From Eubacteriales bacterium (GTDB lineage Bacteria > Bacillota > Clostridia > Oscillospirales > CAG-272), in contig JAZSMJ010000006.1 of NCBI GenBank assembly GCA_045535815.1, positions 5,430 to 69,429 on the forward strand: a stretch of 64,000 nucleotides of DNA, written 5' to 3'. Position 1 is the first letter of the stretch, and each line of letters opens with the position of its first letter. The notes below the pieces were generated by a model. It saw only the letters and a program-made list of their open reading frames with translations, did no database searches and was not told the origin of the DNA. The position numbers and the translations under genes are program-made. This document shows positions 53,956-58,258 of this stretch, one piece after another.

Positions 53956-54042
53956 GCGGGTATGGCGGAATTGGCAGACGCGCTAGATTCAGGTTCTAGT
54001 GGGGGCAACTTCGTGAAGGTTCAAGTCCTTTTACCCGCACCA
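53956..54042 (+). tRNA. tRNA-Leu (CAG)
   Basis: GCGGGTA/TACCCGC acceptor stem, CTAGA-TTCAGGT-TCTAG anticodon arm, long variable arm, GGTTCAAGTCC T-arm and encoded CCA. Confidence 0.96.
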
Positions 54043-54044
54043 CT

Positions 54045-54085
54045 AAAAAAGTCACTTTTGTCTACCGACAAAGGTGACCTTTTTT
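54045..54085 (+). terminator. tRNA-Leu terminator with TTTGTC-TACC-GACAAA core
   Basis: AAAAAAGTCACTTTTGTC-TACC-GACAAAGGTGACCTTTTTT. Confidence 0.8.
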
Positions 54086-54086
54086 A

Positions 54087-54254
54087 ATGATATCCGTTCC
54101 TTGCGGAACGGGTGATATATCTTCGATATGATATCGCACTTCGTGCGATGATATATGCCTGCGGCATATGAATGAACGGATATTATATCATGCTTGCGTA
54201 GCAAGTATATCATGCGGAGATGCCGTATATCATATCGCGTCAGCGATATATCAT
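54087..54254. repeat. Mirror-symmetric hairpin array 1 (4x TGATAT+hairpin, then 4x TATATCA)
   Basis: TGATAT at 54088, 54113, 54129 and 54149; TATATCA at 54184, 54206, 54226 and 54247; short palindromes between them. Confidence 0.9.
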
Positions 54255-54282
54255 TGAAAAGCACAATAATTTATGATATAAT
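54254..54282 (+). promoter_or_regulatory. sigmaA promoter at the end of array 1
   Basis: TTGAAA-17 nt-TATAAT with an extended TG, 22 nt before the four-helix-bundle ATG. Confidence 0.75.
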
Positions 54283-54304
54283 TATCTTGAAAGAAGGTGC
54301 TATT

Positions 54305-54658
54305 ATGTCCGAAAACAAATTACTTGATCTATCTTTTGAATTTGCGGTTGCTATTGTTAATCTTGTGGATGGCATAACTGCACCCAAAAGTTCCTATATG
54401 ACCGATCAGCTCGCAAGAGCAGGTACATCGGTTGGTGCCAATATTCACGAAGCGCAGTATGCACAGAGCAAGAAAGACTTTGTTGCGAAGTTGGAAATCG
54501 CTTTGAAAGAATCCAACGAAACAAGTTATTGGTTGAAATTGATGTACGAAACCAAAAGAAGCGATATCGCTACATATCAATACACAGAGAAGCTTTGTGG
54601 TAATATCCGCAGGCTTTTGATCGCTTCTTGCAGAACCGCGAAGGAGAATTCGAAATGA
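54305..54658 (+). CDS. Four-helix bundle protein (23S rRNA IVP / TIGR02436-like)
   Basis: DQLARAGTSVGANIHEA...SKKDF..KLEIALKESNETSYWL signature; GAAGGTG RBS. Confidence 0.9.
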   Translation: MSENKLLDLSFEFAVAIVNLVDGITAPKSSYMTDQLARAGTSVGANIHEAQYAQSKKDFVAKLEIALKESNETSYWLKLMYETKRSDIATYQYTEKLCGNIRRLLIASCRTAKENSK

Positions 54659-55269
54659 ATAAAATTATTTGGGATATTTCTGACTATATTTTTGTTTCCG
54701 ATGAACCTAAAAAGGTTGATGCAATCTTTCTGCCGGGAGGGTCGCATCCTGAACAACCTGAATATGCGGCTAAACTGTACCATAAAGGTTATGCTAAGTG
54801 GATTATTCCCTCTGGTGGAGTTAGTGTTAAACGAGATAAATGGCCAGGTGTTCGCTCAAAGGCCGAGATATATAATGGTGATTATCAATCCGACTGCGAG
54901 TTTTTTATCGATGTGTTTGTAAAAAACGGTGTGCCTATAGATGCAATTATTGGAGAAGATAAATCAGGACATACTCGTGATAATGCTTTTCTTTCACGAA
55001 AAGTCGTTGACGAAAGTGGCGTTGAGATAAAAACGGCAATGATTGTCTGTAAAGCGTTTCACGCCAGACGTTGCCTTATGCTTTATCAAATGGCTTTTCC
55101 CGATGTTGAGATAAAGGTATGTCCAGTTCATTGCTTCAATATAACAAAGGATAATTGGTATATGACCGAGCTAGGAACAGACCGTGTTCTTGGCGAACTC
55201 GCCCGGTGTGGCAATCAGTTTGTTGGTGACATGAAGTCATATTTATCATATATTAAGAACAACCAGTAA
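54655..55269 (+). CDS. YdcF/DUF218 family protein
   Basis: DAIFLPG, IIPSGG, EDKSGHTRDNA and KAFHARR motifs; ATGA overlap with the upstream gene. Confidence 0.85.
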   Translation: MNKIIWDISDYIFVSDEPKKVDAIFLPGGSHPEQPEYAAKLYHKGYAKWIIPSGGVSVKRDKWPGVRSKAEIYNGDYQSDCEFFIDVFVKNGVPIDAIIGEDKSGHTRDNAFLSRKVVDESGVEIKTAMIVCKAFHARRCLMLYQMAFPDVEIKVCPVHCFNITKDNWYMTELGTDRVLGELARCGNQFVGDMKSYLSYIKNNQ

Positions 55270-55404
55270 GATAATAGAATGCGTCAAATTTTACTTTGAC
55301 ACAAAAAGAATATTCACATTACTTTTGGTCTTTCTTACCCATGTTTATATACTTTTAGTCGCTCTTTCAATGTTTTGTCCTATATTAACTCTGGAGGTAA
55401 TGGT

Positions 55405-56462: not shown

Positions 56463-57248
56463 ATGGACAGAAAGCTTATTGATCTTTCTTTCGAAGATTT
56501 TCCAATGCAGCTTCACAGCTTTGTGAAAGATGCAAAAATTTATGATAGCAGTTGTTCAGAGCTTGCGAGAGTTTATTACATAGACAAGGGTAGCGGATAT
56601 TATCTGAAAAGATCGCCTAAAGAAAGTCTTAAAAGTGAAGCTCATATGACCGGATATTTTGCCTTTAAAGGATTATCCTGTAACGTCATTGAATATCTTT
56701 CTGAAGAATACGATTGGATGCTTACAGAAAAAATATCAGGCGAGGATTGCACTTTTCAACAATATCTTGATAATCCCGAAAGATTATGTGATACTCTTGC
56801 AATTCTTCTGAGAAAGCTTCATGAAACCGAATACAAGGGCTGTCCTATAGAGGATCATACCAACCTCTACTTTAAAAGAGCAGAGGAGAACTATAGCAAC
56901 GGCATATTCGATTCATCGTTCATATCAGACGAGCTTGATTTTGCAAATGCAGACGATGCGTGGAGATTTGTTGAGACCTCAAAAGACGCATTAAAGAACG
57001 ATGCATTACTTCACGGTGATTATTGTCTTCCGAACGTAATTCTGGATAATTGGAATTTCAGCGGTTTCATTGATCTCGGTAACGGGGGAGTAGGCGATCC
57101 TCATGTAGACATTTTTTGGGCGATTTGGACGCTTGAATATAATCTGAAAACAGATAAGTATAAAGACAGATTTATAGATGCTTACGGTCGTTCTTCAGTA
57201 GATAAAGAAAAGCTAAAGCTTATTTCAGTTATAGAGGCATTCGGCTGA
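56463..57248 (+). CDS. Aminoglycoside 3'-phosphotransferase-like kinase
   Basis: YYLK, HGDYCLPN (Brenner motif), FIDLG and D...D; about 261 aa. Confidence 0.85.
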   Translation: MDRKLIDLSFEDFPMQLHSFVKDAKIYDSSCSELARVYYIDKGSGYYLKRSPKESLKSEAHMTGYFAFKGLSCNVIEYLSEEYDWMLTEKISGEDCTFQQYLDNPERLCDTLAILLRKLHETEYKGCPIEDHTNLYFKRAEENYSNGIFDSSFISDELDFANADDAWRFVETSKDALKNDALLHGDYCLPNVILDNWNFSGFIDLGNGGVGDPHVDIFWAIWTLEYNLKTDKYKDRFIDAYGRSSVDKEKLKLISVIEAFG

Positions 57249-57318
57249 TGATATGCCAAGCCTGCGGCTTGGATAAACAAAAAGAACATTTGTCTATCGA
57301 CAAATGTTCTTTTTGTTG
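57248..57318. repeat. Partial copy of the array-2/terminator unit (direct repeat of 58109-58183), also a bidirectional terminator
   Basis: ATGATATGCCAAGCCTGCGGCTTGGATAAACAAAAAGAACATTTGTC-TATC-GACAAATGTTCTTTTTGTTG. Confidence 0.9.
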
Positions 57319-57406
57319 TTGCCTAAGAACAACTAAACGGTTCGTAAATGTAGGAAAGAAAAGCGAAATGGTGCGTAACCGTACTGTTCAACAAATTGGA
57401 TTTTAC

Positions 57407-57883
57407 TTACTCAATTTCTGTGCGAATAGTAAATACATCAGGAAGATTAAAAATATCCTTTTTCAGGAATAGTGGATAAAAATACACCTCACCCAATCTT
57501 TCAAACTCCAACCATTCAAAAATGTGTGTGCGATGACCTTCGTTTGATGTAAACAGTTTGCCCCTTTCCAATAAATCTGTATTTGATATATCCATTAAGA
57601 AATAAATACATAGTTCGTGATAGCGAAGATTATCGACATCTTCAGTAAAAAATGCTTGATTGAGCCAAAGAGGACGGACAATCGTAGGCGTAATGCCTAA
57701 TTCTTCTTGCGCTTCTCTGATAACCGCATTTTCTGCTGTTTCACCTATGGCAACTCTCCCGCCGGGCAAATAGTAATACGGTGACCTCTCATCGTGCATT
57801 GCCAAGATTTTGCCGTCAGAAATCATCATAGCACACACTCTGTAATTAAATTTCTCATTGTCAATTTTGAAAGATATGTCCAT
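57407..57883 (-). CDS. NUDIX hydrolase
   Basis: LPGGRVAIGETAENAVIREAQEELG Nudix box. Confidence 0.93.
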   Translation of the reverse strand: MDISFKIDNEKFNYRVCAMMISDGKILAMHDERSPYYYLPGGRVAIGETAENAVIREAQEELGITPTIVRPLWLNQAFFTEDVDNLRYHELCIYFLMDISNTDLLERGKLFTSNEGHRTHIFEWLEFERLGEVYFYPLFLKKDIFNLPDVFTIRTEIE

Positions 57884-57924
57884 CCTTTAATTCTCTTGTC
57901 AAATTTTTATTTGTGCGTGAGTTT

Positions 57925-57953
57925 ATTATATCACACTTTTGCAAATACATCAA
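57925..57953 (-). promoter_or_regulatory. sigmaA promoter at the end of array 2, driving NUDIX
   Basis: Minus strand TTGATG-17 nt-TATAAT with an extended TG. Confidence 0.65.
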
Positions 57954-58135
57954 GGCGTAGCCTTGAATATCATCCGCAACTTGTTGCGGTATATCATCAA
58001 TGCGAAGCATTGTATATCATCAAGCCGCAGGAAGATGCACGCTGGCGCGTGATGAGATACAAGGGCGGCTTGTCGCCCTTGATGATATACGCCGCACTTC
58101 GTGCGTCAATGATATACCAAGCCTGCGGCTTGGAT
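57946..58135. repeat. Mirror-symmetric hairpin array 2 (hairpin+TATATCAT x3, then ATGATATA+hairpin x3)
   Basis: CAAGGC-GTA-GCCTTG, CCGCAAC-TT-GTTGCGG, CAATGC-GAA-GCATTG, CAAGGGCG..CGCCCTTG, CGCAC-TTC-GTGCG and CCAAGCC-TGC-GGCTTGG, joined by 8-nt linkers. Confidence 0.9.
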
Positions 58136-58136
58136 A

Positions 58137-58182
58137 AACAAAAACAGAACATTTGTCGGTAGACAAATGTTCTGTTTTTGTT
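58137..58182 (-). terminator. tRNA-Val terminator with TTTGTC-TACC-GACAAA core
   Basis: Minus strand AACAAAAACAGAACATTTGTC-TACC-GACAAATGTTCTGTTTTTGTT. Confidence 0.8.
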
Positions 58183-58258
58183 GGTGGGGACAACTGGAAT
58201 CGAACCAGTGACCTCATGCATGTCAAGCATGCACTCTAACCAGCTGAGCTATGCCCCC
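58182..58258 (-). tRNA. tRNA-Val (GAC)
   Basis: Minus strand GGGGGCATAGCTCAGCTGGTTAGAGTGCATGC-TTGACAT-GCATGAGGTCACTGGTTCGATTCCAGTTGTCCCCACCA. Confidence 0.96.

Follow-up and report, generated by a model that had tools for sequence, protein, structure and literature searches.

Hairpin arrays that include the Gut-1 motif head a family of gene cassettes behind tRNA genes in gut Clostridia

The window analyzed here, a 64,000-nucleotide stretch of contig JAZSMJ010000006.1 from a Eubacteriales bacterium (assembly GCA_045535815.1, the source genome), carries behind a tRNA-Leu gene a cassette of about 1.3 kb (approximately 54043-55368) that is headed by a two-armed array of hairpins. The parts of such a cassette come in the order of its own terminator, the array, a promoter-like site, an optional gene for a four-helix-bundle protein, a single cargo gene of variable kind and, frequently, an NCA-ending tail. 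Arrays of this type head a cassette family that stands directly behind many tRNA genes in gut Clostridia, and the left half of the array has already been catalogued as the Gut-1 motif. The features of the locus are the following.

53956..54042, + strand: tRNA-Leu(CAG) gene with encoded CCA, the host gene and docking point, outside the cassette
54044..54086, + strand: leading terminator-like hairpin, beginning 1 base past the CCA; a near-identical hairpin stands behind other tRNA types elsewhere
54086..54255, + strand: two-armed hairpin array (type A head) with 8-bp terminal inverted repeats; 102 distinct copies were collected
54086-54093 and 54248-54255: the terminal inverted repeats of the array
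54090..54099, + strand: 5' strand of a long-range helix, doubling as the 5' strand of hairpin 1
54174..54183, + strand: 3' strand of the long-range helix, at the array centre
54085..54159, + strand: match of the left arm to Rfam Gut-1 (RF01706), 62.2 bits against a threshold of 50, model positions 1-77
54254..54282, + strand: sigma70-type promoter-like site, a consensus match only (11/12, extended -10), whose -35 box begins within the final two array bases
54305..54658, + strand: gene for the four-helix-bundle protein, 117 aa (PF05635, TIGR02436)
54655..55269, + strand: cargo gene, DUF218 (PF02698), whose start overlaps the helix-bundle stop (ATGA)
55315..55368, + strand: cassette tail, pyrimidine-rich, conserved and unstructured; the final NCA and hairpin are missing in this copy, likely deleted

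The seven-hairpin array is real and structurally conserved. All seven hairpins quoted in an earlier note on this DNA are found, at 54094, 54117, 54133, 54153, 54193, 54215 and 54233, together with the four TGATAT words (54088, 54113, 54129, 54149) opposite four TATATCA words (54184, 54206, 54226, 54247), and none of 5000 dinucleotide shuffles reproduced this set of four and four linker words. Folding of the array compared with shuffled sequences, a check proposed in the same note, gave z-scores of -5.40 as RNA and -5.51 as DNA, with none of 200 shuffles folding as well as the array. The 10-mers that start at 54090 and 54174 complement each other exactly, as had been pointed out; a distant exact 10-nt complement appears by chance in 416 of 5000 shuffles (8%) and is not significant in a single sequence. 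The long-range helix that they form is supported because homologs keep the pairing, not because of this single-sequence match.

Homologs were searched with a pattern that fixed solely the centre and the right-arm words and put no constraint on the left arm or on the inner part of the long-range helix. From 123 pattern matches in 121 loci, 31 without three left-arm words or enough flank and one simple repeat were dropped, and the addition of 12 copies from a survey of relatives and removal of one duplicate resulted in 102 distinct copies; the alignment comprises 75 of the 82 copies that have four words per arm. The exact centre word is rare, being found in 2 of 401 genomes of an even sample of the phylum, the source genome included. 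In the alignment, pairing reaches 96.1% over the structure of six side hairpins plus long-range helix, and the cells with two-sided changes number 302, compared to 90.6 in shuffles (0/500). The long-range helix by itself is 98.8% paired, with changes on both sides in 6 of its 11 pairs, and hairpin 1 is 92.7% paired; of all 102 copies, 90 retain the inner seven pairs of the long-range helix and 54 retain those of hairpin 1. Long-range helices made of other sequences are found again in arrays of other subtypes (L054, L057, L249, L204). A separate figure for the long-range helix, 63/146, was discarded, as both orientations had been mixed in it. The proposal that stems vary yet stay paired between constant linkers is borne out by the aligned homologs, in which the side hairpins covary and the linkers are nearly invariant, and the covariation shows selection for pairing in the side hairpins as well as in the long-range helix.

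Two folds are available to the array, one with hairpin 1 and a rod of zipped left and right linkers, the other with the long-range helix. On the plus strand of the window copy the former is 4 to 6 kcal/mol more stable. The long-range fold had been described in the earlier note as a competitor of the rod; it proves to be a real pairing and no minor rival, since it is better kept than hairpin 1. The rod, for its part, is the minimum-energy fold of the window copy. Its linkers are 98-99% complementary, with a two-sided change in 1 of 20 pairs, and since the right-arm words were fixed by the search pattern this test is limited; in other-subtype arrays the commonest left and right words are not reverse complements in four of seven cases. 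Because the linkers barely vary and the words of other subtypes are often not reverse complements, the rod is unproven: it is possible, and indistinguishable from inverted protein-binding words. Selection on structure, as originally suggested, can therefore be upheld for the side hairpins and the long-range helix and not for the rod.

The match to Gut-1 and the role of the array as a cassette head are additions to the earlier description. Gut-1, according to the available text of PMC2864571, was derived from human gut sequences and listed as most likely a non-coding RNA, proposed without a function. The left arm of the array resembles it as a series of short hairpins parted by constant words and matches the whole 77-position model, whereas Gut-1, as far as that text describes it, consists of three hairpins of one arm, and the array has in addition a second arm opposite the first, the long-range helix, a leading terminator and a cassette. 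The right arm gives a weak match to the model on the minus strand (54202-54284) that stays, at 27 bits, below the threshold. The loops of the two arms are of different kinds: left-arm loops are of the cTNCg/cTNNCg type in 258 cases and of the G..A type in 2, and right-arm loops are cGNAg/cGNNAg in 118 cases versus 7. The result is a mirror symmetry in which each DNA strand bears cGNAg/cGNNAg loops on its own 3' arm. According to the available text of PMC13037366, GCGNAGC and GCGNNAGC form DNA mini-hairpins of unusual stability that exceeds that of their RNA forms, and both are met with at single-strand priming sites and single-stranded promoters. The mirror symmetry of the loops, together with the stability of these mini-hairpins, therefore favours DNA over RNA and points to DNA mini-hairpins on opposite strands.

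It is rather improbable that the array is instead a structured non-coding or regulatory RNA, as first proposed for Gut-1, which would be produced by read-through of the tRNA terminator and alternate between two folds. Such an RNA would be in line with the Rfam match above threshold, with the published listing as most likely non-coding RNA, with the lower folding energy as RNA of the plus strand relative to the minus strand (-65.0 vs -56.9) and with raw right-arm G.T counts that are higher on the plus strand. The array stands, however, behind a terminator and without a plus-strand promoter of its own, its loops are mirror-symmetric, its right-arm tetraloops are mostly not GNRA (37 vs 22), no cUUCGg loop occurs in the array copies examined, and type B arrays, with the arms in inverse arrangement, exist. 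The strand asymmetry of G.T versus A.C pairs, 84 versus 11 raw in the right arm, was rejected as an indicator, since it comes near parity, the G.T excess vanishing, once repeated column types are merged. Two metatranscriptome runs (X19, X20) yielded unstranded contigs without long pieces of the source organism and were not used for expression.

The position behind tRNA genes is a property of the family. A tRNA end lies within 70 nt upstream in 59 of the 102 copies and belongs to 30 tRNA types, with only a hairpin of 27-49 nt between the CCA and the array. This leading hairpin belongs to the element, because near-identical copies stand behind different tRNAs in other genomes. The source genome has three full type A copies (behind tRNA-Leu, tRNA-Arg and a non-tRNA hairpin) and one partial copy, as well as several other array types behind further tRNAs; among 60 relatives, type A arrays are present in 10, in a patchy distribution. 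At an orthologous tRNA-Gly locus, six of 201 congeneric genomes present two empty alleles, one with a hairpin and a collapsed remnant, and three that are filled differently, and in a filled allele a terminator resembling that of an empty allele is displaced to a position after the cargo. These alleles show that, on the time scale of species, elements have been inserted or lost at the CCA junction; they do not show movement in real time. Phage carriage left no sign, the only two matches to viral contigs both lying near contig ends. A passive REP-like (repetitive extragenic palindrome) repeat, spread between tRNA terminators by ordinary recombination with neighbouring genes as hitch-hikers, would account for the solo, tandem (L058), hybrid (L016) and collapsed remnant (L247) copies; the fixed order of head, cargo and tail, the exact CCA junctions at 30 tRNA types and the fixed 50-nt spacing to a near-identical gene in different genera leave this explanation very little probability.

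The protein encoded behind the array scores well above the curated cut-offs of its families (80.5 vs 33.8 bits for PF05635, 90.6 vs 24 bits for TIGR02436). Its fold consists of four helices and is best matched by 2RLD (BT_0352), which is the closest structure by both sequence and fold and has five chains. Avd (4DWL) and a complex of diversity-generating retroelements (DGRs; 8UB7) appear weakly in the fold search, the Avd match not being significant (E 0.24, 11% identity). Avd is a nucleic-acid-binding pentamer. No fused catalytic domain was seen in twelve longer homologs of the protein, which bear PF05635 only; this is weak evidence. The gene is the first one behind 20 of the 102 arrays, in most cases at a distance of 50 nt and with 70-97% identity. 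Conversely, an array lies upstream in 56 of 58 non-duplicate loci of the helix-bundle subfamily with enough flank, at 14 tRNA types, many of these loci being from strains of few species, and all five PF05635 genes of the source genome stand behind some repeat array.

This tight link, the invariance and dyad symmetry of the words and the overlap of the promoter-like site with the last word would also be expected of a duplex operator, in which the helix-bundle protein would be bound by eight words at even spacing and by a hairpin-1 motif present three times, so as to regulate the adjoining promoter, the hairpins being by-products. Such an operator is nonetheless very unlikely, as it explains neither the heavy compensatory change in the spacers nor the loop consensus, and arrays without a promoter or gene behind them exist.

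The cargo is a single gene of variable kind (methyltransferases, a deaminase, immunity-like genes, NUDIX and DUFs) that, by eye, often starts in the helix-bundle stop codon. The tail, approximately 55 nt in length, has 44 distinct matches in the loci and the genome and none in a shuffled genome; it ends in NCA in 34 of the 44, and in 29 a hairpin follows directly, often as the head of another cassette. Its folding energy is -0.2 and -0.6 kcal/mol. Nine tails, the window copy included, have no recognisable end, several apparently by deletion across the hairpin. When locus L161 is compared with strains L167 and L169, the last bases of the tail and the next hairpin are seen to be lost between short T-runs, and the same scar seemingly lies at 55368. 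Joints in metagenome contigs (e.g. of 54261 with 55320 and of 55367 with a further head), probably from other organisms, served only as a lead to the tail, and no contig bridging the locus was found in DNA runs X1-X4.

From the observed anatomy, covariation and allele polymorphism we infer that the array likely acts as folded single-stranded or cruciform DNA read by a partner protein. The fuller reading, to which we give about an even chance, takes the array for the left end of the cassette at the level of DNA, sees in the helix-bundle protein its reader, and places joining at NCA-hairpin junctions, carried out by an enzyme supplied in trans. The structure would form in DNA, on either strand, and the invariant TGATAT words would be candidate binding sites of the BT_0352/Avd-like protein, which would bind rather than cut. 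Joining would take place at an NCA-then-hairpin junction recognised by its shape, through an enzyme encoded elsewhere, and the tail would rebuild this junction, allowing cassettes to stack. The long-range helix and the hairpin 1/rod fold may be the alternative states of a single switch, which might serve for priming or for the loading of a protein on a single-stranded intermediate. A bolder version of the reading, which is tentative and on balance doubtful, would make these elements a new class of enzyme-less gene-capture cassettes, in which a two-state DNA origami head is read by an orphan PF05635 protein, recognition of shape allows single genes to be inserted after the CCA of nearly any tRNA gene, and the landing site is restored by a tail that ends in NCA.

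Several observations weigh against a DNA cassette mobilized in trans. No transposase, integrase or reverse transcriptase (RT) lies within the cassette, and no enzyme was identified; PF01797 has no match in the source genome, which is 96.7% complete, and the single RT (PF00078) and four tyrosine recombinases (PF00589) of that genome are on other contigs. About four in five arrays do not have the helix-bundle gene next to them, a tail is found within 1.2 kb of just 26 of 97 heads, and one filled allele (L246) has no detected tail. The hybrid array L016 is without the long-range helix, the homologs are related and not independent, and after merging of column types a slight plus-strand excess of G.T pairs is left in the long-range helix (8 vs 3), which fits RNA too. 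No empty allele of the window locus was found, the MgtC flank having matched only genome G000 among 151 genomes at E<=1e-60; no same-species empty allele was seen, and short metagenome contigs checked for excised circles had no terminal repeats of 15-129 nt.

A route through RNA is unlikely, yet it would accommodate some of the same anatomy. In this scenario, tRNA read-through and 3' processing would free an RNA reaching from just after the CCA to the NCA, an RT from elsewhere, assisted by the Avd-like protein, would copy it, and the left arm would fold in the cDNA. The left end that is exact at the CCA, the tails ending in NCA, the cargo start at the helix-bundle stop codon and the weak presence of Avd and the DGR complex in the fold search all agree with it, and Avd, according to the available text of PMC6182149, binds DGR RNA and assists the RT. 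Opposed to it are the lack of an RT in the cassette, with the sole RT of the genome elsewhere and no array seen near it, the terminator at the very start of the cassette together with an internal promoter, a tail without predicted structure, and the non-significance of the Avd match. The lone RT (L157, G000 C54:19760-20302) is retron-like by eye and has a non-coding leader. The idea of a pyrimidine-rich site bound by Avd was dropped, being mentioned neither in the available text of PMC6182149 nor in the results of a literature search.

Integron gene cassettes, of the attC/IntI type, are small units with mixed single-gene cargo that stack at one site, which is defined by shape more than by sequence. 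The cassettes described here share with them the single-gene mixed cargo, the stacking and a site of shape over sequence, and differ in that no integrase stands beside the stack and every cassette brings along a terminator and a promoter-like site. No IntI lies beside the cassettes (of four PF00589 matches, none is on the window contig), and attC had no match in the Rfam scan and no R/L boxes were noticed, no attC model having been run. The comparison with REP/BIME (bacterial interspersed mosaic element) sequences, or REPINs, and their TnpA-REP/RAYT transposases, the 'REPtrons' described in the available text of PMC6006769, reveals similar inverted pairs of hairpin repeats with many solo copies, a cognate small gene by some copies and several repeat types per genome; multi-copy intergenic inverted hairpin repeats, by which REP/BIME-RAYT systems are recognized, are present in the source genome. 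Unlike in the REPtrons of that account, the partner of the array is a four-helix bundle and not an HUH/Y1 protein, with no PF01797 in the source genome, the gene moves with the array, and the sites are tRNA 3' ends. With IS200/IS605 ends, as that text presents them, the cassette has in common that its left end is rich in hairpins, that it is inserted 3' of a short target and no long duplication results, and that its right end closes with a short word resembling the target; it differs in having no TnpA, an unstructured right end and a far more elaborate head. The likeness to DGR Avd and target hairpins, within what is available of PMC3240598 and PMC6182149, consists of a distant similarity in fold and of DNA hairpins with variable stems and constant G..A loops. 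The cassette protein is, by contrast, a PF05635 member much nearer to BT_0352 (2RLD) than to Avd, and with regard to the DGR combination of RT, avd and template and variable repeats (TR/VR), no RT is among the cassette genes, TR/VR repeats not having been searched. The cassette thus falls outside the definitions of REP/RAYT, integron, IS200/IS605 and DGR systems, while working somewhat like each of them, and a literature search, in which most subscription papers were beyond reach, did not find such a system.

Further arrays occur in the window and in other genomes. On the minus strand, behind tRNA-Val, the interval 57236-58184 contains an inverse-type array (ATATCA arm first), a promoter-like site, a NUDIX gene and a GCA-ending tail, and the stack continues with a second near-identical leading hairpin and an array stump, so that two cassettes face the tRNA-Leu cassette.

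57316..57370, - strand: second tail, with GCA and a hairpin at its end, closing the neighbouring NUDIX cassette behind tRNA-Val

An aminoglycoside phosphotransferase (APH)-family gene (PF01636; 56463-57248) ends at the array stump on the opposite strand; its best NCBIfam APH(3') model scores 144 bits, under the cut-off of 205. TCACT-rich, TGAAG and GTGATAT arrays stand behind tRNA terminators on contigs C23, C24, C42, C54, C75, C73 and C15 of G000; two of the TCACT arrays precede PF05635 genes, and on C73 a head of the TGAAG type comes after the same tail. In L058, at least four type A arrays are arranged in direct tandem behind one tRNA-Leu, joined at their terminal repeats. In L013/L022 (C28 of G018, a genome alone in its own genus) a unit of tRNA-Gly end, hairpin and array recurs with a 410-bp period, which is either a tandem duplication or an assembly artefact. 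A non-tRNA subfamily (L003, L023, L063, L098, L107, L112, L129) has its own GC-rich leading hairpin, and the stretch conserved downstream of these arrays is a different one.

These results tie the Gut-1 motif and the PF05635 four-helix-bundle family, both of them orphans of long standing, to one unit with mapped ends, and they suggest that a motif which has been filed as RNA works as DNA. If the cassettes move as we infer, small accessory genes shuttle between uncultured gut Clostridia, and tRNA 3' ends are targeted whatever the identity of the tRNA. Should enzyme-less capture prove true, the tRNA loci of gut Clostridia would constitute an integron-like system without an integrase, and both Gut-1 and the 23S intervening sequence (IVS)/Avd-like protein family would acquire functions.
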